From the NCBI GenBank assembly GCA_965205975.1, contig OZ242195.1, forward strand, positions 1,776,643-1,840,642: DNA of 64,000 nt, read 5' to 3'. Source of the stretch: Candidatus Latescibacterota bacterium. GTDB lineage: Bacteria > Latescibacterota > UBA2968. Every line of letters begins with the position of its first letter. Position 1 is the first letter of the stretch. The translations under genes were made by a program, and so were the position numbers. Below, in pieces: positions 12,147-36,338 of this stretch. The notes under the pieces are model-generated. The model did no database searches. It saw only the letters and a program-made list of their open reading frames with translations, and was not told where the DNA came from.

Positions 12147-13715
12147 ATGAACACAAAAACATCCTCCGACCCTTTACTCATCGGCATCGACGTTGGAACC
12201 ACCAATATCAAAGCCCTGATCTTTGATCATCGAGGTCGCGAAATCGCACGCGCACAGGCCAAAACGCCCACACACCATCCACAGCCAGAATGGGCGTATT
12301 ACAAACCCGATGAACTCTGGGAAACCGTATGCGGCGTCCTGAAAAATACTGTTGCACAAATCGACAATCCCGCCAACATCACTGGCATAGCCACCGCGAG
12401 CATCGGCGAAACAGGCGTCCCAATCGACAGGAGCGGAAATCCAACCGGTCAGGCAATTGCGTGGTTTGACCAGCGCACCCGCCCGCAATGCGAACAACTG
12501 CAAAAAACCTTTGATCGAGACAAACTCTTCTCGCTTACAGGGCTTCCACTACAACCCATTTCCAGCCTGTGCAAAATCCTCTGGATACGCGAACATCAGC
12601 CCGAAGCCTTTGCGCGAACCGCCACCTGGCTCAACACTGCCGATTATATTGCTTTCCGACTATCGGGCATACCCGCCACCGACTATTCCCTCGCCTCTCG
12701 CACCCTTGCTTTTGACCTCCACAGGCGTCAATGGGCAAATGATCTCCTCAGTGAAGTCCGTATTTCTCCAAATCTCTTCGCGCCACTTTGCAATGCAGGA
12801 ACAAACCTGGGTCCCATCCTTCCCGACATCGCACGCGAAATCGGCTTGCCCCGACACACGCGGATATGCGCTGGAGGACACGATCATATTTGCGGCGCAC
12901 TTGCTGTTGGCGTTACAGAACCGGGAACAATGCTCAATTCTCTGGGCACCGCAGAAGCCATGTGCCTGCCCATTTCCCAGCCGCTTACAGACCCGCAAAT
13001 AGGCCGCCAAAACTTCACCATAGGCGCGCACGTCGCACCCCACCAATATTACTTCCTCGGCGGATTATTCACAAGTGGTGCGAGCATCGAGTGGTTCCGC
13101 AGTTTATTTGGCGAAGGCGCAGACTATAACACCTTAATTTCCGAAGCGAGCGAATCGCCCCCCGGCAGCCTGGGTGTCGGCTTTCTTCCACAACTGCGCT
13201 TTACCAACCCGCCCCATGCAGAAGCCATAGCGCGCGGAACATTTATTGGCCTGACACCCGACGCCAACCGCGGCACGCTCTTTCGCGCAATCCTCGAAGG
13301 TCTATCTATGGAAATGCGCCATATTATCGACACGTCCAAATCTCATCCCGGTGTGCCCAAAACAAAAAATATCGTCGCAATCGGCGGTGGCATACGCAAC
13401 CAACTCCTCATGCAAATCAAAGCCACCGTTTTGAACCAGCCCATCGCCCTGGCCGAAATGGATGAAGCAACAGCTCTGGGTGCGGCAGTGCTCGCGGGAT
13501 TGGACACAGGTGTTTACGCGGACGTCGCCGATGCCTTGCACACGCTCGACATCCCCAAGCAGACCATTTACCCCATACCCGATCAGGTCGCGCTCTACAA
13601 CACAATTTACAACCGCGTACACAAACAAATTTATCCAGCAGTGCAAGACCTCCACCAACAGATTGACCAGATCCAGATGGAAAACGAATCAACGAATAGA
13701 CGAATCAACGAATAG
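12147..13715 (+). CDS. FGGY family carbohydrate kinase (xylulokinase-like)
   Basis: N-terminal LIGIDVGTTNIKALIFD and C-terminal GGGIRNQLLMQIKATVL blocks. The last ~10 codons are encoded by an octamer repeat array. Confidence 0.85.
   Translation: MNTKTSSDPLLIGIDVGTTNIKALIFDHRGREIARAQAKTPTHHPQPEWAYYKPDELWETVCGVLKNTVAQIDNPANITGIATASIGETGVPIDRSGNPTGQAIAWFDQRTRPQCEQLQKTFDRDKLFSLTGLPLQPISSLCKILWIREHQPEAFARTATWLNTADYIAFRLSGIPATDYSLASRTLAFDLHRRQWANDLLSEVRISPNLFAPLCNAGTNLGPILPDIAREIGLPRHTRICAGGHDHICGALAVGVTEPGTMLNSLGTAEAMCLPISQPLTDPQIGRQNFTIGAHVAPHQYYFLGGLFTSGASIEWFRSLFGEGADYNTLISEASESPPGSLGVGFLPQLRFTNPPHAEAIARGTFIGLTPDANRGTLFRAILEGLSMEMRHIIDTSKSHPGVPKTKNIVAIGGGIRNQLLMQIKATVLNQPIALAEMDEATALGAAVLAGLDTGVYADVADALHTLDIPKQTIYPIPDQVALYNTIYNRVHKQIYPAVQDLHQQIDQIQMENESTNRRINE
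13684..13715 (+). repeat. octamer tandem array (ACGAATCA/ACGAATAG) x4
   Basis: Read directly: acgaatca acgaatag acgaatca acgaatag. Same unit family as 17337-17473. Confidence 0.85.
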
Positions 13716-13812
13716 ACGGAGCGGGGTACAACTGCGCCAGCAGTTTATCAACGGAGTGGTGTACCTGTCTGCCTCCATCACAGGCAGGCAACTGCACCGC
13801 CTCACCAGCCTT

Positions 13813-17314: not shown

Positions 17315-17336
17315 ACATCCTCCATATAAAAAATCA

Positions 17337-17473
17337 TCAACGAATCAACGAATCAACGAATCAACGAATCAACGAATCAACGAATCAACGAATCAACGAA
17401 TCAACGAACCCCACCCATCCTCCCAAAACCGATATGTATTTCCATTCGTCCATTCGTCTATTCGTCTATTCGC
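17337..17473. repeat. (TCAACGAA)x9 perfect tandem array plus 4 inverted units (CCATTCGT/CTATTCGT) in the hyuA-hyuB spacer
   Basis: 17337-17408 holds nine perfect 8-nt units. 17442-17473 holds four units of the reverse-complement type. The two blocks can pair as a long interrupted hairpin. Confidence 0.9.
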
Positions 17474-27814: not shown

Positions 27815-27956
27815 TTTGCCCGCGCTATGAATCCCTTTGCACCCTTCTAAACCGACCCCCTTGCTCTCTATCTTGCTCTCTTTGCTCTTTAGACCGAGAG
27901 TATGATGACCTGCGTCTTGGTCTTTTTGCCCGCGCTATAAACGCCTTTGCACCCTC
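27815..27956. repeat. 32-bp imperfect direct repeat pair (27815-27846 / 27925-27956) bracketing a ~78-bp segment rich in TTGCTCTCT-type short repeats
   Basis: tttgcccgcgctat[g/a]aa[tc/cg]cctttgcaccct occurs twice. The segment between contains cttgctctct...cttgctctct...tgctcttt. Confidence 0.8.
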
Positions 27957-28664
27957 TTGCAGCCACCCGGTGCTATTCACCAGCAGCATCTGTACCCCGG
28001 CAGCGGCAAATTTGCCCACATTATCCGACGAGGTCATCGTACCCGCAACACGCCCCGACGCGATAATCTTCGCAAGCGCGTCGTCAATTGTCTTTTGCAC
28101 CACTTTATTTTCCAAATCGCCAATATATCCCATCGACGCCCCCAGATCTGAAGGCGCGACAAAAAATACATCGACCTGATCCACAGTCAGGATCTCATCC
28201 AAATTCTCCACCGCGACGATGTCTTCAATCAAAATGGTGAGCAACACCTCGTCATTGGCCTTTGCAAAATAATCCGCAACCCCATAGCCCTGCCGGCTCG
28301 TGAACATACCGCGCTGACCAATGGGTGCAAACCGACCCCCCGCCACGACATTTTCCGCTTCTTCGCGCGTATTCACATGCGGCACCACAATACCCTGCGC
28401 CCCCCTGTCCAGCGTGCGATAAATAAGCGTCTGATCGTTGCGATTCACGCGCACAATCGACGTCATGCCCCACAGATCACAGGCGCGCGTGAGATTGCCC
28501 AACTCGTCAAAAGCCATGGGGCCGTGCTCCCCCTCAATCCATATCCCATCAAAATTTGCGGGACCAAATGCGTCGATATCATCCGCGTGCGTAAATCCAC
28601 CGGCGATATACGCCTGTTCGCCGCGTCGCAACTTGTGTTTTACCCGATTCTGTCGAAGTTCCAT
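27825..28664 (-). CDS. HpcH/HpaI aldolase/citrate-lyase family protein with an aberrant repeat-derived C-terminal tail
   Basis: FDGIWIEGEHGP, IVRVN and LDRGAQGIVVPHVNTREEAE are typical HpcH blocks. The last ~35 aa (RPRRRSSYSRSKEQREQDREQGGRFRRVQRDS) are encoded by the inserted repeat segment. Confidence 0.75.
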   Translation of the reverse strand: MELRQNRVKHKLRRGEQAYIAGGFTHADDIDAFGPANFDGIWIEGEHGPMAFDELGNLTRACDLWGMTSIVRVNRNDQTLIYRTLDRGAQGIVVPHVNTREEAENVVAGGRFAPIGQRGMFTSRQGYGVADYFAKANDEVLLTILIEDIVAVENLDEILTVDQVDVFFVAPSDLGASMGYIGDLENKVVQKTIDDALAKIIASGRVAGTMTSSDNVGKFAAAGVQMLLVNSTGWLQEGAKAFIARAKRPRRRSSYSRSKEQREQDREQGGRFRRVQRDS

Positions 28665-29812: not shown

Positions 29813-30808
29813 CTAATGCTCCCCCTCTTCGTAGCGAATACGCGGATCGAGCCACAACAACAAAATGTCTGAAATGAGCGTACCGACAAGCGTCAACAGG
29901 CTCAACATCATCACCATACTGCCCGCCAGATACATATCCTGATTCATAAGCGCGCGCAACAACAGCGGTCCCGTCGTCGGCAAGCCCAACACCACCGACG
30001 TAATCGTCGCCCCAGACACAATGCCCGGCAAAACCCATCCCACAGTACTGACGAGCGGATTGAGCGCCACGCGCACCGGATACCGCATCAACAACACCCA
30101 GTAGCGCACGCCTTTGGCGCGGGCAGTCATCACGTATTGTTTCCGCAATTCATCCAGCAAATTGCCCCGCATCACCCGTATCAATCCCGCCGTACCCGAC
30201 GTGCCAATCACAATCACAGGGATCCACAAATGCCAGAGCAAATCGAGAAATTTGCCAAAGGACCACGCCGCACTCTGATACTCCGGTGAAAACAGACCGC
30301 CTGCACTCACCCCAAACACGGAATACCCGATGTACATAAAAACGAGCGCGAGTAAAAAATTGGGCGTAGCAAGCCCGATAAAACCCAAAAACGTAAAACA
30401 ATAATCCGGCAGTGAATACTGCTTCACAGCCGAATAAATCCCAACTGGAATCGCCAGTGCCCACGTCACCAGCAGCGTCACAATCGAAATAATAGACGTC
30501 AGCAAAATGCGTTCGCCAATCAGCTCTGTCACGGGCCGATTCCACTCAAACGACATCCCCAAATCGCCCCGCACCATGCCTTTCAACCACCGCCAGTATT
30601 GCACTATAAAAGGCTGATCGAGATTGTACCGCGCCCGCAGTGCCGCAGCCTGCGCCTCATCCACCGTCTCTCCCGTCTCACCCAGCGCAGCAATATACGA
30701 CGTGAGATAATCCCCTGGTGGAAGCTGGATAATTGAAAACGAAATGAATGAGATGATAACCATTGTGGGGATCATCCACAACAGGCGTTTGACGATGAGA
30801 ATGAGCAT
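29813..30808 (-). CDS. peptide ABC transporter permease (OppB/DppB-like)
   Basis: 331 aa. N-terminal IVKRLLWMIP and EAA-type loop region (ARAKGVRYWVLLMRYPVRVAL), six TM segments. Confidence 0.85.
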   Translation of the reverse strand: MLILIVKRLLWMIPTMVIISFISFSIIQLPPGDYLTSYIAALGETGETVDEAQAAALRARYNLDQPFIVQYWRWLKGMVRGDLGMSFEWNRPVTELIGERILLTSIISIVTLLVTWALAIPVGIYSAVKQYSLPDYCFTFLGFIGLATPNFLLALVFMYIGYSVFGVSAGGLFSPEYQSAAWSFGKFLDLLWHLWIPVIVIGTSGTAGLIRVMRGNLLDELRKQYVMTARAKGVRYWVLLMRYPVRVALNPLVSTVGWVLPGIVSGATITSVVLGLPTTGPLLLRALMNQDMYLAGSMVMMLSLLTLVGTLISDILLLWLDPRIRYEEGEH

Positions 30809-30850
30809 ATAAAAATTTCCTGGGAGGTAAAAAAACTATCCGCAGATGAA
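30691..30850. repeat. copy 1 of a ~160-bp duplication (functional oppB 5' end plus leader)
   Basis: Aligns by eye with 31752-31921: ...caatatacgacgtgag[a/g]taatccc... to ...aaaaactatccgcagatgaa. Confidence 0.85.
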
Positions 30851-30872: not shown

Positions 30873-31484
30873 TCAGCCATTATGGTCTTCAGACCCTTCT
30901 CGTGCCCGTTGCAATAATTCAGACAAATTTAGAGATTCCGCCCAGTGCTTCAGGTAATCCCAATCTAACCTGTCGCCCTGTACTTTCAATATACCCGATA
31001 CATCCCGTAATTGTCGGTCTGAAACTTCGCCACCTTTTCGATACCAGATCAATTTTTGCAGTACAATATCCTCTGGCGTTGCCACGACCAATTGCGTGCC
31101 AGCAATGGTCTGCGACCTTCGACGACGCATTTCTTCACGGTCAATCGCTTCAGAACCAGGTACAAAAATATCTACCTTAATCATTGTTTCGAGATGGATA
31201 ACATTGAAGGAACTGTGCCGAGAAACAGCGCGAATAACATCTTCTTCTTCGATGTAAAATGCGTTTTGGGTATTTGCAATGAGAGCTTGAATATGGTGAT
31301 TCTTCAGTTCTGCAACCATGTCGATATCCTGTGTGGCGCGAGGCTCTCCGTAGATGGAACTGGCAATTGACCCGCCCACCAGATATGGAATATCCAGGTT
31401 TTCAAAAATTTCAGCCATTTGCAGAGCGACGCACAGGGGTTCAGAAATCACCTCAATAGCCCTCTTTGTGTGGGTCCCAGCCAA
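30873..31484 (-). CDS. nucleotidyltransferase-fold protein (putative toxin-like partner of a two-gene module)
   Basis: NTase signature GGSIASSIYGEPRATQDIDMV. The track start is TTG 31484, overlapping the upstream small gene by 32 nt. ATG at 31418 (MAEIFENL) is an alternative. Confidence 0.6.
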   Translation of the reverse strand: MAGTHTKRAIEVISEPLCVALQMAEIFENLDIPYLVGGSIASSIYGEPRATQDIDMVAELKNHHIQALIANTQNAFYIEEEDVIRAVSRHSSFNVIHLETMIKVDIFVPGSEAIDREEMRRRRSQTIAGTQLVVATPEDIVLQKLIWYRKGGEVSDRQLRDVSGILKVQGDRLDWDYLKHWAESLNLSELLQRAREGSEDHNG

Positions 31485-31719
31485 ATGCTTTAATCATGGT
31501 CTGCCGGGGGAGCCGCAACGCGCCGAGGCGAAGGCGAATTTCTCGCTCATCTGCTTCGGGATACCGGCTGCGAATGCCCGAAATTGCAAGGTCTGTACAC
31601 GCCTGAGAGAGTTGGGATATTTTTTCGGCTTTTTCGTGTGGTGTCATTCGCCGATACGCTTCAATGAGCAGGCGTTCTACCCTATGATTCGTGTCCCGCG
31701 ATTGTGTTTTATAAGCCAT
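31453..31719 (-). CDS. small helical protein, antitoxin-like partner of the nucleotidyltransferase
   Basis: 88 aa with GGAG upstream of ATG 31719, positioned immediately upstream of and overlapping the NTase gene. Family not identified by eye. Confidence 0.5.
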   Translation of the reverse strand: MAYKTQSRDTNHRVERLLIEAYRRMTPHEKAEKISQLSQACTDLAISGIRSRYPEADEREIRLRLGALRLPRQTMIKAFGWDPHKEGY

Positions 31720-31751: not shown

Positions 31752-31921
31752 CAATATACGACGTGAGGTAATCCCCCGGTGGAAGCTGGATAATTGAAAA
31801 CGAAATAAATGAAATAATCACCATTTTGGGAATCATCTACAACAGGCGTTTGATAATGAGGACGAGCATGTAAAAATTTCCTAGAGGTAAAAAACAACCA
31901 CAAAAACTATCCGCAGATGAA
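31752..31921 (-). pseudogene. decayed duplicate of the oppB 5' end and leader
   Basis: Minus strand reads ATG CTC GTC CTC ATT ATC AAA CGC CTG TTG TAG (MLVLIIKRLL*), versus MLILIVKRLLWMIP in the real gene. TGG is changed to TAG and a 10-nt insertion lies in the leader. Confidence 0.75.
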
Positions 31922-32074
31922 CGCAGATAAAAGGCGAAAGGGCAATCCAACCCCGAATCAGGATTTACAGGATTAAATGAGGGCAGGATTAGCGGTCATC
32001 AACGAACACAGGCACACACGTCATTCCTGTGCATGCCGTAGGCAGGGCTTAATAGCCACTCTCAGGAATCCAAG

Positions 32075-33901
32075 CTATGAGATTAAGGGAATTCCGGAAA
32101 AGCCAGAAACTATTGGTATTAGTAGAGACTTTAAAATTTCCATGGCTGAACTAGCTGCAAAACTAGAAAAAAAATTTTCTACCCATCGCTTCAATCGCTC
32201 CCTTCCGTTGCCATCCCCAGAGTTTATTGAGGCTAGTTCTTTGATGTGTTCTTCAATGTGTTCTTCAATGTGTTCTTTAATGTGTTCTTTAATGTGTTCT
32301 TTAATATGTTTTTCAAGCAACTTAACGAGTTCAGCAACCTTATTCCATTCGGGACTCTCAGCGGTAATATGTTTTTCAAGCTGCTTAACGAGTTCAGCAA
32401 CCTTATTCCATTCGGGACTCTCAGCAGTTTTTTGGTCTAGTTCGGCAAGATGCTTTTTGGCCTGCTCAACAAATCTCTGAACCCTATCCTTATAGTCTTT
32501 TGACAGTGCATCTATAGTATCTTGGATATTTTCATTAGCGAGAGACTTTATCTTTGTCCCGTTTTTCTTAGTCTCAGTCTCAAGGGTGGTAATGCGGTCT
32601 GTCGCTTCAGTAAGGGAGGTGTTGCTACTTTCCATATCAGTCTCAAGGGTGGAAACGCGATCTGTCGCTTCAGTAAGGGAAGTGTTGCTACTTTCCATAT
32701 CAGTCTCAAGGGTGGAAACGCGATCTGTCGCTTCAGTAAGGGAGGTGTTGCTACTTTCCATATCAGTCTCAAGGGTGGAAACGCGATCTGTCGCTTCAGT
32801 AAGGGAAGTGTTGCTACTTTCCAAACCAGTCTCAAGGGTGGTAATGCGGTCTGTCGCTTCAGTAAGGGAGGTGTTGCTACTTTCCAAACCAGTCTCAAGG
32901 GTGGAAACGCGATCTGTCGCTTCAGAAAGGGAGGTGTTGCTACTTTCCAAACCAGTCTCAAGAGTAGAAACGCGATCCGTCACTTCAGAAAGGGAGGTGT
33001 TGCTACTTTCCATATCAGTCTCAAGAGTAGAAACGCGATCTGTCGCTTCAGTAAGGGAGGTGTTGCTACTTTCCATATCAGTCTCAAGGGTGGTAATGCG
33101 GTCTGTCGCTTCAGTAAGGGAAGTGTTGCTACTTTCCATATCAGTCTCAAGGGTGGTAATGCGATCTGTCGCTTCAGAAAGGGAGGTGTTGCTACTTTCC
33201 ATATCAGTCTCAAGAGTAGAAACGCGATCCGTCACTTCAGTAAGGGAGGTGTTGCTACTTTCCAAACCAGTCTCAAGAGTAGAAACGCGATCTGTCGCTT
33301 CAGTAAGGGAGGTGTTGCTACTTTCCATATCAGTCTCAAGGGTGGAAACGCGATCTGTCGCTTCAGTAAGGGAGGTGTTGCTACTTTCCAAACCAGTCTC
33401 AAGAGTGGTAATGCGATCCGTCACTTCAGAAAGGGAGGTGTTGCTACTTTCCAAACCAGTCTCAAGAGTAGAAACGCGGTCTGTCGCTTCAGTAAGGGAG
33501 GTGTTGCTACTTTCCAAACCAGTCTCAAGGGTGGAAACGCGATCCGTCACTTCAGAAAGGGAGGTGTTGCTACTTTCCATATCAGTCTCAAGAGTAGAAA
33601 CGCGGTCTGTCGCTTCAGTAAGGGAGGTGTTGCTACTTTCCAAACCAGTCTCAAGGGTGGAAACGCGATCCGTCACTTCAGAAAGGGAGGTGTTGCTACT
33701 TTCCATATCAGTCTCAAGAGTAGAAACGCGATCCGTCACTTCAGTAAGGGAGGTGTTGCTACTTTCCAAACCAGTCTCAAGAGTGGTAATGCGGTCTGTC
33801 GCATTTGCCACATCACCTATGGCGAGGATTGCCAATATCATCGCCATTAATGCCATAACGATCAAGATAATCCCTAACATCACCATCAAAGTCGTCTCCA
33901 T
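32075..33901 (-). CDS. membrane-anchored repeat protein: N-terminal TM helix, 19.5 x 21-aa heptad repeats, C-terminal helical domain with further repeats
   Basis: ATG 33901 with AAGGAG 7 nt upstream. N-terminal TM segment METTLMVMLGIILIVMALMAMILAILAI. Repeat unit is TDR[VI][ST]TLET[GD][LM]ESSNTSL[TS]E[AV]. Non-repeat C-terminal part ends in a hydrophobic segment. Neighbouring genes are all on the same strand. Confidence 0.7.
   Translation of the reverse strand: METTLMVMLGIILIVMALMAMILAILAIGDVANATDRITTLETGLESSNTSLTEVTDRVSTLETDMESSNTSLSEVTDRVSTLETGLESSNTSLTEATDRVSTLETDMESSNTSLSEVTDRVSTLETGLESSNTSLTEATDRVSTLETGLESSNTSLSEVTDRITTLETGLESSNTSLTEATDRVSTLETDMESSNTSLTEATDRVSTLETGLESSNTSLTEVTDRVSTLETDMESSNTSLSEATDRITTLETDMESSNTSLTEATDRITTLETDMESSNTSLTEATDRVSTLETDMESSNTSLSEVTDRVSTLETGLESSNTSLSEATDRVSTLETGLESSNTSLTEATDRITTLETGLESSNTSLTEATDRVSTLETDMESSNTSLTEATDRVSTLETDMESSNTSLTEATDRVSTLETDMESSNTSLTEATDRITTLETETKKNGTKIKSLANENIQDTIDALSKDYKDRVQRFVEQAKKHLAELDQKTAESPEWNKVAELVKQLEKHITAESPEWNKVAELVKLLEKHIKEHIKEHIKEHIEEHIEEHIKELASINSGDGNGRERLKRWVENFFSSFAASSAMEILKSLLIPIVSGFSGIPLIS
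32576..33799 (-). repeat. 63-bp in-frame tandem repeat, 19 full copies plus a 27-bp partial copy
   Basis: Period verified on the nucleotide sequence (gtctcaag recurs at 32640, 32703 ...). Copies differ at a few biallelic positions. Confidence 0.9.
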
Positions 33902-33927
33902 GACACACTCCTTATGGATATAAAACG

Positions 33928-34125
33928 CTAAAATTCTCCTGGCGTGCCTCTTGCGTGACCTTCTGCAATATTCGATGAAATAGAAATTCTTGCACGCCGC
34001 ATCTGACTGATCAAGCCAAACTTTTCCTGCTCTGGAAACTTTTCTGTTGCACGATAAAGTTCTTTAGCCAACACAATGCCCTGTTTCCAAACTTCAAGAT
34101 CGCGATAACTTCTAATGCCCTTCAT
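33928..34125 (-). pseudogene. 3'-truncated four-helix-bundle protein gene (23S rRNA intervening-sequence protein family)
   Basis: MKGIRSYRDLEVWKQGIVLAKELYRATEKFPEQEKFGLISQMRRARISISSNIAEGHARGTPGEF* matches the N-terminal half of this ~120-aa family. It stops where the family normally continues (EF...). Confidence 0.6.
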
Positions 34126-34182
34126 ACACCACCTTCCCACTTACAACCACCAACCAGCCCCAACTCTTAATCCCCAGCCTCC

Positions 34183-36276
34183 TTATTCAATCGCATAACA
34201 TTCAACCGCCGTATTCCCTGGCGTGCGAAATGCCCAGCCGGACATCGCGACCTCGGGCACATTGCGAAATGAATTTTTGACCAGATAAAACGAGGGCAAT
34301 GCTCCCACCGTGCCGATGACCCACAGATTCTTTCGATTCAAATCGATAATTTCTCCCATAAGCCGGATTTGTTCATCTTCGTCAATCGTCTTCTCAATCT
34401 CCCAAAACAGCTCAATACACCGCCGCATATCACTGGGGGGTTCTTCACCGCGTTTTTTCTCCGTGCGATACCAACGCGCATAATCCACTGCGTGTACAGA
34501 CTCATCGCTAAATGGAACGAGCCAGCGCGGATCCAGAACAGCGATCTGCTCATCTGACCCACCCCACACGCCGACATCGTGCAGCAAACCCTTTTTGCGC
34601 TCATAAAACAACTGCCGCGCTTCTTCCTTCACCTCTGACTGCACCCCCACCGCAGTCCAGTAGCTCGCCACCAGTTCCAGAATGCGATTATTCAGAGACG
34701 TCGTCTCAATATAGAGCTTAATCGGTTCGCCATCAGCCCGCAATCGCATGCCATTGCTCCCGCGCTTCAGCCCCATCTCGTCGAGCAATGCATTTGCGCG
34801 GTCTGGATCGTATTCGATATATGCGTGCTCGTAATCCGCATCGTAAAACGGCGACGATGGCGGCGGACAAACTTGCCTCGGCTTCCCAATCCCAAAATAA
34901 TCCGCCTCGTTTAATTCATCGCGATTCAGCGCGTGCGACAGGGCTTTTCGAAAGCGGCGATCCCCGATAATTCTCTTCATTTCCGGATCGCGGTGATTCA
35001 AATTCAACGCCAGGATATTTGACCCCGCCGACCCATTGATCCAATGTACAACCCGATAATCGCCCTTCTTTCTCCCCTCCATAAACAGCGGATAATTCTG
35101 GAACTGCAGGTGCCGCCCCTGCATGCCTATTTCCCCGTTGATCGCCTTGAGATTGATGGTCTCGGGATCAAAAATCTCAAAGGTCATGCGGTCGATGTAC
35201 GGCAGTTGATTCCCATCGGGATCGACCTTCCAATAATAGGGATTGCGCTCCAGCACTGCCGGACGCGCAGGCGGCGGCGCAACCACAATCCACGGCCACA
35301 AACGCGGGATATCCGGATTGCGCCAATCGCGCATATCTTCAAAAAGCTGCTTCCACAAATCAAATCCCGCGGCCTCGCTCATGGCCTCGAGCTTTTCCAA
35401 AGACGTGTACTTCGGATGAAATTGCTTCATATAATGGGCCGGATAGCGCAGCATCTCATAACCGCGTCCCGACGCCAACTTCATAATAAACAACCCATTG
35501 GGCTCCAAAAACGTGAACCGCACCGTATAATCATCGACCCTCTCCAACCCCATCACCCGTCCACCCCGCTTAAAATCGCGCGGCACAACAGGCGTTATCT
35601 CCTCGTCTTGCAACACATCTTCATACCAGAAAATGAGATCATCAACCGTAAACGGATGCCCGTCTGACCACCTTACCCCTCTGCGCAAATAAAATGTAAA
35701 ACTGCGTCCCCCATCGGCAATCTCCCACCGCACAGCCAGATTGGGAATCACCTCCTGCGCCATCGCATCCCACCGCACCAGACCCTCATACGCAAACCGG
35801 GCTTCGACAATACCCACATCGCGGGGACCAGTCGCAAACCGCGTCCACGTCCCCCCATAAGGCCCATGCTGTTGCGGCGGTACAATAACAAGAGGATCTT
35901 CCGGCAGGCGTTCCGATACCGACGGCAAGATCCCCTCTCGCACCCGCTGGGCGAGCATAGGCGCTTCGGCAAATCGTCCCTCCGACCATTCAGCCACCTG
36001 ATGCACCGCCCCTGTTGCCTCGGGATGGCGATTGGGAATCTCAACATCCGCCATCACAGCCTCGAGATCCCGCGTCCCATCTGCTGGCACCACAGGCACA
36101 ACACCATCCTCGGGCGCACGCACCAGACTGCCCATCACGGCCTCAAATTCCGATGCCCGTTGTATCGCATCCGGATCGCGCGGCGACAGGTAAAATGCGA
36201 CATATCCCATCCCCTGCACCAGAAGCACAAAACTGGCAAAAACACCGATAAGCGTGATCCACACTTTAATTCCCAT
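34183..36276 (-). CDS. ABC transporter substrate-binding protein, family 5 (peptide/nickel type), large variant
   Basis: 697 aa. N-terminal TM/signal anchor and a family-5 SBP body (e.g. FTFYLRRGVRWSDGHPFTVDDLIFWYE, NPYYWKVDPDGNQLPYID). Confidence 0.8.
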   Translation of the reverse strand: MGIKVWITLIGVFASFVLLVQGMGYVAFYLSPRDPDAIQRASEFEAVMGSLVRAPEDGVVPVVPADGTRDLEAVMADVEIPNRHPEATGAVHQVAEWSEGRFAEAPMLAQRVREGILPSVSERLPEDPLVIVPPQQHGPYGGTWTRFATGPRDVGIVEARFAYEGLVRWDAMAQEVIPNLAVRWEIADGGRSFTFYLRRGVRWSDGHPFTVDDLIFWYEDVLQDEEITPVVPRDFKRGGRVMGLERVDDYTVRFTFLEPNGLFIMKLASGRGYEMLRYPAHYMKQFHPKYTSLEKLEAMSEAAGFDLWKQLFEDMRDWRNPDIPRLWPWIVVAPPPARPAVLERNPYYWKVDPDGNQLPYIDRMTFEIFDPETINLKAINGEIGMQGRHLQFQNYPLFMEGRKKGDYRVVHWINGSAGSNILALNLNHRDPEMKRIIGDRRFRKALSHALNRDELNEADYFGIGKPRQVCPPPSSPFYDADYEHAYIEYDPDRANALLDEMGLKRGSNGMRLRADGEPIKLYIETTSLNNRILELVASYWTAVGVQSEVKEEARQLFYERKKGLLHDVGVWGGSDEQIAVLDPRWLVPFSDESVHAVDYARWYRTEKKRGEEPPSDMRRCIELFWEIEKTIDEDEQIRLMGEIIDLNRKNLWVIGTVGALPSFYLVKNSFRNVPEVAMSGWAFRTPGNTAVECYAIE

Positions 36277-36286
36277 TATTGCCTCT

Positions 36287-36338
36287 CATCTGCCATTCAT
36301 CTGCGTACATCTGCGTACATCTGCGTATATCTGCGGAT
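36287..36338. repeat. decamer tandem array, about 5 units (CATCTGCGTA type)
   Basis: ATCTGC recurs at 36288, 36299, 36309, 36319 and 36329. The array fills most of the 66-nt spacer between the stop at 36343 and the oppA-like start at 36276. Confidence 0.85.

Follow-up and report, generated by a model that had tools for sequence, protein, structure and literature searches.

A membrane-anchored protein with 19.5 three-heptad repeats at an insertion hot spot of Latescibacterota, probably derived from an RmuC-type nuclease

The repeat gene and its product

The 64,000-nt stretch of contig OZ242195.1 from a Candidatus Latescibacterota bacterium analyzed here (the window) carries on its minus strand, denoted (−), a gene of 608 codons with an ATG start (32075..33901, −), whose product is built around near-identical 21-aa repeats and, as judged from sequence homology, descends from the membrane anchor and stalk of RmuC-type nucleases. 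The gene was recognized from the open reading frame (ORF) list and from the ratio of nonsynonymous to synonymous substitution rates (dN/dS) against an orthologue on another contig, L022. From the N to the C terminus, the 608-aa protein comprises a hydrophobic helix, 19 full and one partial 21-aa unit, a helical region of 170 aa, and a hydrophobic tail. The N-terminal transmembrane (TM) helix, at approximately residues 4–28 (33818..33892, −), gave a Kyte–Doolittle 19-residue mean of 3.1. The ORF, the output of Tandem Repeats Finder, and the parsing of the units into a table agreed on a tandem array of 19.5 copies of a 63-bp unit, which encodes a 21-aa three-heptad repeat (32574..33802, −), and thus bore out the first-pass annotation, made from the sequence alone, in which a membrane-anchored 608-aa protein with 19.5 repeats of 21 aa had been described. 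As regards the architecture, that annotation had placed the N-terminal TM helix and the array correctly, but it had overlooked the C-terminal hydrophobic tail and two extra internal repeats.

Both of these additional repeats were detected with Tandem Repeats Finder. One is a second duplication, 63 bp × 2 (32302..32425, −), encoding TAESPEWNKVAELVK[QL]LEKHI; it is also present in L022 (AKDSGWEKVAELVKPLKKHI / AESFDWEKVAELVKPLEEHL), and the duplication is therefore older than the split of the two. The other is a 12-bp repeat in 6.2 copies (32236..32310, −) encoding (K/E)EHI × 6, which sequence comparison showed to be absent in L022 and in P0012, the other relative described below. The C-terminal hydrophobic/amphipathic tail VENFFSSFAASSAMEILKSLLIPIVSGFSGIPLIS (32078..32182, −; Kyte–Doolittle 19-residue mean of 1.81) is directly preceded by the basic cluster RERLKR, and its motif E[IV]L[KR]xL..PI is kept in P0012 and L022. 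An AGGAG ribosome-binding site (33908..33912, −) was read from the sequence 6 nt 5′ of the ATG, within a leader, AAGGAGT(G/A)TGTC(A/G)TG, that is common to the window gene and the gene of P0012 (in contig L021). The array encodes 21-residue tryptic peptides, VSTLETDMESSNTSLTEATDR and VSTLETGLESSNTSLTEATDR.

Relatives and RmuC ancestry

Relatives were sought by a word-indexed search of 5.8 billion clusters, by phmmer against 1.84 billion representatives, and in contig sets. In the exhaustive phmmer search, the C-terminal 171 aa of the window protein gave P0012 as the sole convincing match (E = 8.6e-9). This protein of 219 aa has an N-terminal TM helix, a coiled coil with a single TTRISTLET segment, and a tail alignable with that of the window protein; the two are 44% identical across the shared part, with the common motif ENxxxSFxxSxxxE[IV]L[KR]xL..PI....G[IV]PL. 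When used as a query, P0012 returned itself only. A partial orthologue was found by chance on a contig fetched for another protein (L022:3-644). It comprises the C-terminal 213 aa, is 57% identical to the window protein over 171 aa, and its exact sequence was not in the protein collection. The contig begins within an array of TTRVSTLETDLEASNISLAKA units, containing at least 2.7 copies of a diverged unit, and a pseudo-permease fragment and an 88-aa/203-aa gene pair follow 3′ of the orthologue, as in the window.

With the full protein, the word-indexed search returned matches of at most 48 bits, mostly to phage-fibre-like proteins, which were dropped as homologues because they are 23–33% identical and do not share the non-repeat part. 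A tblastn search of phage and plasmid collections gave coiled-coil analogues at 24–33% identity only, the JGI metagenome contigs and IMG/VR contained no relatives detectable by profile or by the exact 29-nt repeat pattern, and an exact look-up of the window protein and two neighbours found none on record. Matches in Pfam, PHROG, PADLOC, and NCBIfam (SMC, Rad50, tape measure, JetC, and TolA_bind_tri) were set aside as compositional, of the kind given by a generic coiled coil.

The ancestry of the family was revealed by comparison with a 553-aa protein encoded on contig L014, which matches the RmuC domain PF02646 with an E value of 2.8e-80. Residues 1–120 of P0012 align with this protein, with 80% nucleotide identity over 143 nt and a near-identical segment, GEVGKLA.(D)NA.LKA.L.QAQKQAQ, and the amplified unit corresponds to residues 75–95 of P0012 (KLKSQTKSLSDATTRISTLET) and to QLEASKNLLAKANNRVSDFET in the stalk of the L014 RmuC protein. 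A collinear three-way alignment of the last unit and C-terminus of the window protein, P0012, and residues 127–303 of the L014 protein reaches the first helices of the Pfam RmuC domain (KLV..LEK and LGELD being common), after which the short proteins diverge into the tail; the alignment with the L014 protein stops approximately 45 positions into the domain. When the profile of the three-member family was compared with three RmuC proteins by hhalign, a probability of 99.2% (E = 8e-20) was obtained, mostly from the N-terminus of P0012. In addition, the TM helix of the window protein aligns with those of P0012, the L014 RmuC protein, and P0014–P0016 (invariant M1, L9, G10, I12, L18, A20, I25, and G29), with four extra hydrophobic residues relative to the RmuC relatives.

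PF02646 was not among the best 25 of the 44 Pfam matches for the whole window protein, nor among the best 25 Pfam matches of its C-terminal 171 aa, P0012, or the L022 orthologue (E up to 10), and the three short proteins are therefore stalk-only derivatives and not RmuC members by the defining domain. At the level of homology, these alignments demonstrated that the window protein has its origin in the TM-plus-stalk module of RmuC-type nucleases and has no nuclease. The earlier statement that no described family has this unit thus holds for the 21-aa unit, but not for the protein that contains it.

The same module has been altered in other proteins. P0014 has a 33-aa tandem stalk duplication relative to P0015, both being nuclease-bearing, and in P0016 and P0018 (L022 2133-3215 and L023 10001-11083) an RmuC-type TM helix and stalk (about 140 aa) are joined directly to a leucine-rich-repeat (LRR) domain at the same hot spot. 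These fusions and the length difference between P0014 and P0015 thus indicate that the module recombines readily and that its length changes easily. By the positive-inside rule, the LRR domain of both chimeras would be cytoplasmic.

Variation of the array units and selection on the reading frame

In the output of Tandem Repeats Finder, the array showed 91% matches and 0% indels. The 19 full units all fit TDR[VI][ST]TLET[GD][LM]ESSNTSL[TS]E[AV] exactly, and unit 20 consists of TDRITTLET only. The six variable residues per unit form four fully linked groups (VS/IT, GL/DM, T/S, and A/V), and 10 of the 16 possible allele combinations are present among the units. At the DNA level, the unit has 11 variable sites, giving 16 distinct units out of 19, and all four gametes were observed at 39 of the 55 site pairs, which implies repeated exchange between units. 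These counts uphold the initial description of four biallelic sites that occur in many combinations, as would fit gene conversion or unequal crossing-over.

Array length had also been expected to vary, and the lineages do differ: one unit is found in P0012, at least 2.7 in L022, and 19.5, as assembled, in the window. An assembly artefact is an unlikely source of the array, since a second sample, L022, has an array at the same locus; because the L022 contig starts inside it, the array is independent of the window's own assembly. Such a contig break inside the array is what short-read assembly would give at a tandem repeat.

Two ORFs on the plus strand, of 442 and 445 aa, also span the array. 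They are hardly longer than the array itself, and remain open only for want of a stop codon in those frames of the unit. Read in the minus-strand frame, the 11 variable sites comprise five synonymous changes and six conservative replacements (V/I, S/T, D/G, M/L, T/S, and A/V). This frame scored better than all the other five, with a joint Monte Carlo probability of about 0.014 for random substitutions. Against the L022 orthologue, the window gene gave a dN/dS of 0.43 (171 aligned codons; Fisher P = 5e-5), and against P0012 a dN/dS of 0.48. For the unit alone, the window and L022 sequences are identical at 45 of 63 nucleotides and 15 of 21 residues, and the dN/dS was 0.13 (P = 0.001), with synonymous sites near saturation. 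Meanwhile, the mean unit identity was 92% within the window genome and 72% between the window and L022 genomes; together with the low dN/dS, this difference points to concerted evolution under purifying selection. From these comparisons of sequence, the gene was shown to be real, its reading frame to be under selection, and its units to evolve concertedly, which in turn indicates that the frame is translated and that the protein matters to the cell.

An opposing explanation is that the gene is a non-functional leftover, namely a broken rmuC whose stalk was expanded by slippage and whose frame has stayed open since the unit is 63 bp long without a stop codon. The loss of the catalytic domain, the presence of a truncated gene and a gene fragment among the neighbours, the rarity of the family, and the two further frames open across the array would all agree with it. 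The dN/dS values of 0.43 and 0.48, however, were obtained at a synonymous divergence of 0.7–0.9 from L022 and P0012, over which stops or frameshifts would have had ample time to arise in 170 non-repeat codons, yet there are none; the value for the unit alone was lower still. In addition, the tail motif, which lies beyond the point of truncation, is kept in all three members, and the ribosome-binding site and leader are conserved. We thus regard a leftover as very unlikely.

A predicted coiled-coil rod

Hydrophobic or small residues occupy positions 4, 7, 11, 14 (Ser), 18, and 21 of the unit, and the hydropathy power spectrum of the array peaked at a period of 3.5 (464 versus 126, 99, and 61 for the other 21-residue harmonics), without a beta-type peak near period 2. 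Both the 3-4 spacing and the spectral peak substantiate the heptad a/d pattern that had been noted at first. Read from the sequence, Arg3 and Glu8 would lie at the g and e′ positions of a parallel coiled coil. The closest solved sequences were the reovirus sigma-1 tail (6gao, 6gaj, and 6gap), crescentin, and the P22 gp26 needle, all of which are alpha-helical coiled coils, several being Ser/Thr-rich. In an AlphaFold single-sequence model of residues 351–608, the final four units together with the 50 residues after them formed one continuous helix with a predicted local distance difference test score (pLDDT) of 92–95.

When the full-length protein was modelled in the same way, by contrast, the array appeared as a beta meander of 19-residue strands at a pLDDT of approximately 70, which weighs against a helical rod. 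A beta-rich repeat with turns at Ser-Ser would also be compatible with the Ser/Thr residues that make up half of each unit, with the Gly at position 10 in half of the units, and with the low helix propensity of ESSNTS. The same residues nevertheless gave a continuous, confidently predicted helix when only four units were supplied, the hydrophobic residues follow the 3-4 spacing instead of an alternation of period ~2, the homologous RmuC stalk is described as a coiled coil, and the solved proteins nearest in sequence form alpha-helical coiled coils rich in Ser/Thr. A beta fold is accordingly considered highly improbable. Giving more weight to the fragment model, the periodicity, and the homology to the RmuC stalk, we conclude that the array likely forms an alpha-helical coiled coil. 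If helical, its ~410 residues at 0.148 nm per residue would extend over approximately 60 nm, with a net charge of −67. A role as a DNA mimic was rejected, the charge density being far below that of DNA.

Membrane topology and the N-T-S sequon

RmuC has been described as a predicted TM helix (1–25) followed by a coiled coil and a nuclease (PMC1189080), and for ShdA of the Shield system, a location at the membrane has been demonstrated, with the RmuC domain in the cytoplasm (PMC10270631). Since the nuclease of RmuC must reach DNA, and given the location of ShdA, the stalk of the window protein should be cytoplasmic by homology. Four Lys/Arg residues lie just before the C-terminal tail and one after the first TM helix (TM1), and the cluster RERLKR at the former position agrees with a cytoplasmic rod.

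Two features of the N-terminus argue against this placement. The Lys/Arg/His cluster that follows the TM helix as [RH]x[KR]G..GK in all relatives with an intact N-terminus has been lost in the window protein, so that the orientation of TM1 is weakly determined, and the acidic segment after TM1 would be easy to export. Alternatively, the window protein could have a type II membrane topology, with its acidic coiled-coil stalk acting as a spacer or ruler in the periplasm or even farther out and perhaps bearing glycans on N-T-S. Its TM1 is unflanked by basic residues and the next segment is acidic (net −2 in 15 residues), leaving export unopposed; the hydrophobic segment ends in A-N-A, like a signal-peptidase site; N-x-S is retained in the L022 unit; and the analogues nearest in sequence are fibres found outside the cell (sigma-1, fibritin, and YadA-like adhesins). 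On the other side stand the basic cluster of the relatives, the C-terminal domain of the lineage, which is a cytoplasmic DNA nuclease, and the four Lys/Arg before the C-terminal hydrophobic tail. Moreover, at about 26 residues the hydrophobic core exceeds what a cleaved signal peptide would have (an h-region of about 7–15 residues), and no basic residue precedes it, so that A-N-A is the only feature to agree with a Sec signal peptide. A rod of 60–67 nm would also exceed the typical Gram-negative periplasm of ~25–30 nm. An exported stalk therefore appears unlikely, and a cytoplasmic rod is probably to be favoured. The first-pass annotation had pictured a long coiled-coil stalk projecting outward from the membrane; the rod itself is supported by the heptads, while the RmuC/ShdA ancestry and RERLKR point to a probably cytoplasmic location and not to an outward projection.

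N-T-S is indeed present in each full unit, as had been read from the sequence and as the unit table confirmed. Its context is E-S-S-N-T-S, with Ser at position −2 and not the Asp/Glu needed by PglB-type N-glycosylation. The one-unit homologue P0012 has no sequon, and the L022 unit keeps N-x-S as N-I-S, a retention that may reflect the conserved heptad positions Ser14/Asn15. Because of the Ser at −2, the absence from P0012, and the cytoplasmic location under the favoured topology, N-T-S is probably incidental.

Proposed origin and role of the protein

The probable explanation, in our view, is that the window protein derives from a defence nuclease of the membrane-anchored RmuC type (ShdA-like), has lost the nuclease, and has an amplified stalk segment that would form a cytoplasmic coiled-coil rod. 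According to this proposal, the derivative would have retained the N-terminal TM helix and coiled-coil stalk of an RmuC-type protein and would end just past the first helices of the RmuC domain, in the conserved hydrophobic/amphipathic tail, the PD-(D/E)XK core being absent. Unequal recombination or slippage would have multiplied one three-heptad (21-aa) stalk segment to 19.5 copies, with gene conversion homogenizing the units and purifying selection keeping the heptad core. The product, as far as can be judged from the heptads, would be a parallel alpha-helical coiled coil, an acidic rod that the N-terminal helix, and perhaps the tail as well, would hold at the inner membrane on its cytoplasmic side. 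Since there is no catalytic domain, it could act only via anchoring and oligomerization; we speculate that it may serve as a structural tether, or as a stalk-only partner that co-assembles with RmuC-type or LRR proteins of the same stalk.

Besides the full-length model and the two N-terminal features noted above, three further points weigh against this explanation. The family is extremely rare, with three members in all the databases searched; neither a full-length RmuC partner nor any other rmuC gene is encoded in the 64-kb window; and the locus contains broken genes, namely a truncated four-helix-bundle gene and the pseudo-permease fragment.

Comparison with known systems

The closest known counterparts are RmuC (PF02646) and ShdA of the Shield system, with which the window protein shares a homologous N-terminal TM helix and coiled-coil stalk. 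The L014 RmuC-domain protein has this stalk and is encoded at the same chromosomal site, beside a type II restriction-modification pair, and stalk length is labile in the nuclease-bearing proteins too, as the tandem duplication in P0014 exemplifies. The window protein differs from them in lacking the PD-(D/E)XK core, in its conserved hydrophobic tail, in the 19.5-fold segment, and in the loss of the basic residues after the TM helix. P0016 and P0018 resemble it in the lineage of the N-terminal module, in the hot spot, and in having a different C-terminus in place of the nuclease, but they carry an LRR domain instead of the hydrophobic tail and no 21-aa array.

Ser/Thr-rich trimeric fibres, such as the reovirus sigma-1 tail, T4 fibritin, the P22 gp26 needle, and phage tail-fibre shafts with R[VI][ST][TA]LE, were the best matches in the PDB, in phage records, and in the large protein collection. 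They have in common with the window protein the heptad motif xxR[VI]S[TA]LExx and Ser/Thr/Asn-rich surfaces, but the identity is only 24–33%, which fits a common composition, and they have no TM helix and no common non-repeat domain. An identity as a phage tail fibre or fibritin was rejected, as the PHROG matches cover coiled coil only, the phage matches are 25–31% identical, the neighbours are ABC-transporter and cassette genes (ABC, ATP-binding cassette), and IMG/VR gave no match. A unimolecular or inner-membrane spanin was likewise dismissed, there being no Cys, no lipobox, and no lysis context. A further parallel is offered by streptococcal M proteins, coiled coils of the cell surface whose repeats evolve concertedly, and by coiled coils that set a length, such as Lpp: there too, tandem units lie in register, their copy number is changed by unequal recombination, and the rod length follows the copy number. 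The 21-residue increment of the window protein would likewise keep the heptad register; there is, however, no sequence relationship, and those proteins lie outside the cytoplasmic membrane, whereas the window protein is probably cytoplasmic.

What is known here is thus the RmuC/ShdA-type TM–coiled-coil module, and what is new, on the present alignments, is the loss of the nuclease together with the 19.5-fold amplification of the unit. The gene would document a case in which a defence nuclease gene was dismantled and reused, the anchor and stalk having outlived the catalytic head under purifying selection, and in which one three-heptad segment was expanded 20-fold with concerted evolution. A broader proposal, which we consider distinctly unlikely, is that the TM-plus-coiled-coil module is an exchangeable membrane platform that bears at one hot spot a nuclease, an LRR domain, or a membrane-binding tail only, and that the strongly acidic rod of about 60 nm, kept long by selection and with its length set by the concertedly evolving array, is not a by-product but a new membrane-associated structural element or a regulator of defence nucleases. 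Should the rod have a function, it would be a new kind of coiled-coil element at the membrane, with a length that can be tuned; should it have none, the gene would still caution that a striking repeat protein may derive, quite recently, from an ordinary gene.

The insertion hot spot within the transporter operon

On its upstream side, the repeat gene is flanked by a family-5 solute-binding-protein gene (34183..36276, −; PF00496, E = 7e-63), which is 85–96% identical in 18 returned loci; these belong to metagenome-assembled genomes with the label Candidatus Latescibacterota, which are probably sponge-associated, to judge by their accession series and the literature. The downstream flank is formed by the first ABC permease gene (29813..30808, −; PF00528 and PF19300). 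The genes downstream in the window include two permeases and two ATPases with an oligo_HPY domain, which identifies the operon as an Opp/Dpp-type ABC operon. An HpcH/HpaI aldolase gene (27825-28664, −) lies between the permease and ATPase genes, as it also does in L023.

The solute-binding-protein gene and the first permease gene are only about 15 bp apart, with no insert, in 9 of 20 related genomes. Elsewhere the content of the gap differs: four relatives have an overlapping 88-aa/203-aa nucleotidyltransferase-fold pair, L013 has an intact 133-aa four-helix-bundle gene, and L014 (12103-15753) has a type II N4/N6 methyltransferase, an MjaI-type restriction endonuclease, and the 553-aa TM–coiled-coil–RmuC protein, the best PADLOC match of which is the DRT-associated RmuC model. 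The insertion hot spot proposed at the outset inside the opp operon is therefore real, and at least one genome has a restriction-modification pair and a putative RmuC-type nuclease there. In sponge-type Latescibacterota, the site is a well-defined hot spot for integration into an ABC-transporter operon, at which restriction-modification genes, RmuC, nucleotidyltransferase pairs, four-helix-bundle genes, and stalk fusions are exchanged. The G+C content is 0.46–0.48 over 30–34 kb of the window and 0.53–0.55 in the flanks.

Directly upstream of the repeat gene lies a truncated four-helix-bundle gene of the 23S rRNA IVS protein family, 70 aa in length (33928..34140, −), in which the matches to PF05635 and TIGR02436 span only the first half of each profile. 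A CAG→TAG change has occurred and the 3′ half has been lost, and the homology to L013 stops at 33913, 12 nt 5′ of the ATG of the repeat gene. On its downstream side, the repeat-gene segment is bounded by a pseudo-duplicate of the permease 5′ end and leader (31752..31928, −), recognized by blastn comparison with eight related loci. This fragment has an in-frame stop (TGG→TAG), and its counterpart follows the orthologue in L022 at 835-984. From this arrangement, cassettes would seem to be brought in by recombination within the 5′ region of the permease gene, with copies left behind.

A separate cassette at the site is the overlapping 88-aa and 203-aa gene pair (30873..31719, −), the 203-aa member of which gave weak nucleotidyltransferase-fold matches (NTP_transf_5, AbiEii, and DUF6036). 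The pair is found in six related loci (L002, L003, L009, L017, L022, and L023); it resembles a toxin–antitoxin module and has the behaviour of a mobile cassette. On L021, the contig of P0012, positions 210-296 contain only the last ~80 nt of the binding-protein gene, with unrelated sequence before it. The P0012 gene thus comes from the same site or from a copy of it. Either a fragment of the target moves along with the cassette, or the site has been copied and rearranged.

Intergenic motifs

A terminator-like hairpin (31907..31930, −) was found in a consensus scan approximately 145 nt past the stop codon of the repeat gene, and it contains the octamer CATCTGCG. This octamer occurs 15 times in the window against 3.07 expected, the sites including 31907-31930, 30841-30848, and 36298-36335: it is present in the hairpin before the pseudo-permease, again before the true permease, and, as three tandem copies, immediately upstream of the binding-protein gene. 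Possibly, the octamer is a regulatory or repetitive extragenic palindromic (REP)-like motif of intergenic regions. Other tandem octamers, ACGAATCA (× 8–9) and ACGAATCAACGAATAG (× 2), lie at gene ends in the window at 17336-17408 and 13684-13718. Akin to these, inverted motifs GAATAGACGAA / TTCGTTGATTCGT are located on either side of a GC-rich spacer hairpin at L002 12095-12200, and these motifs may serve as substrates for cassette exchange.

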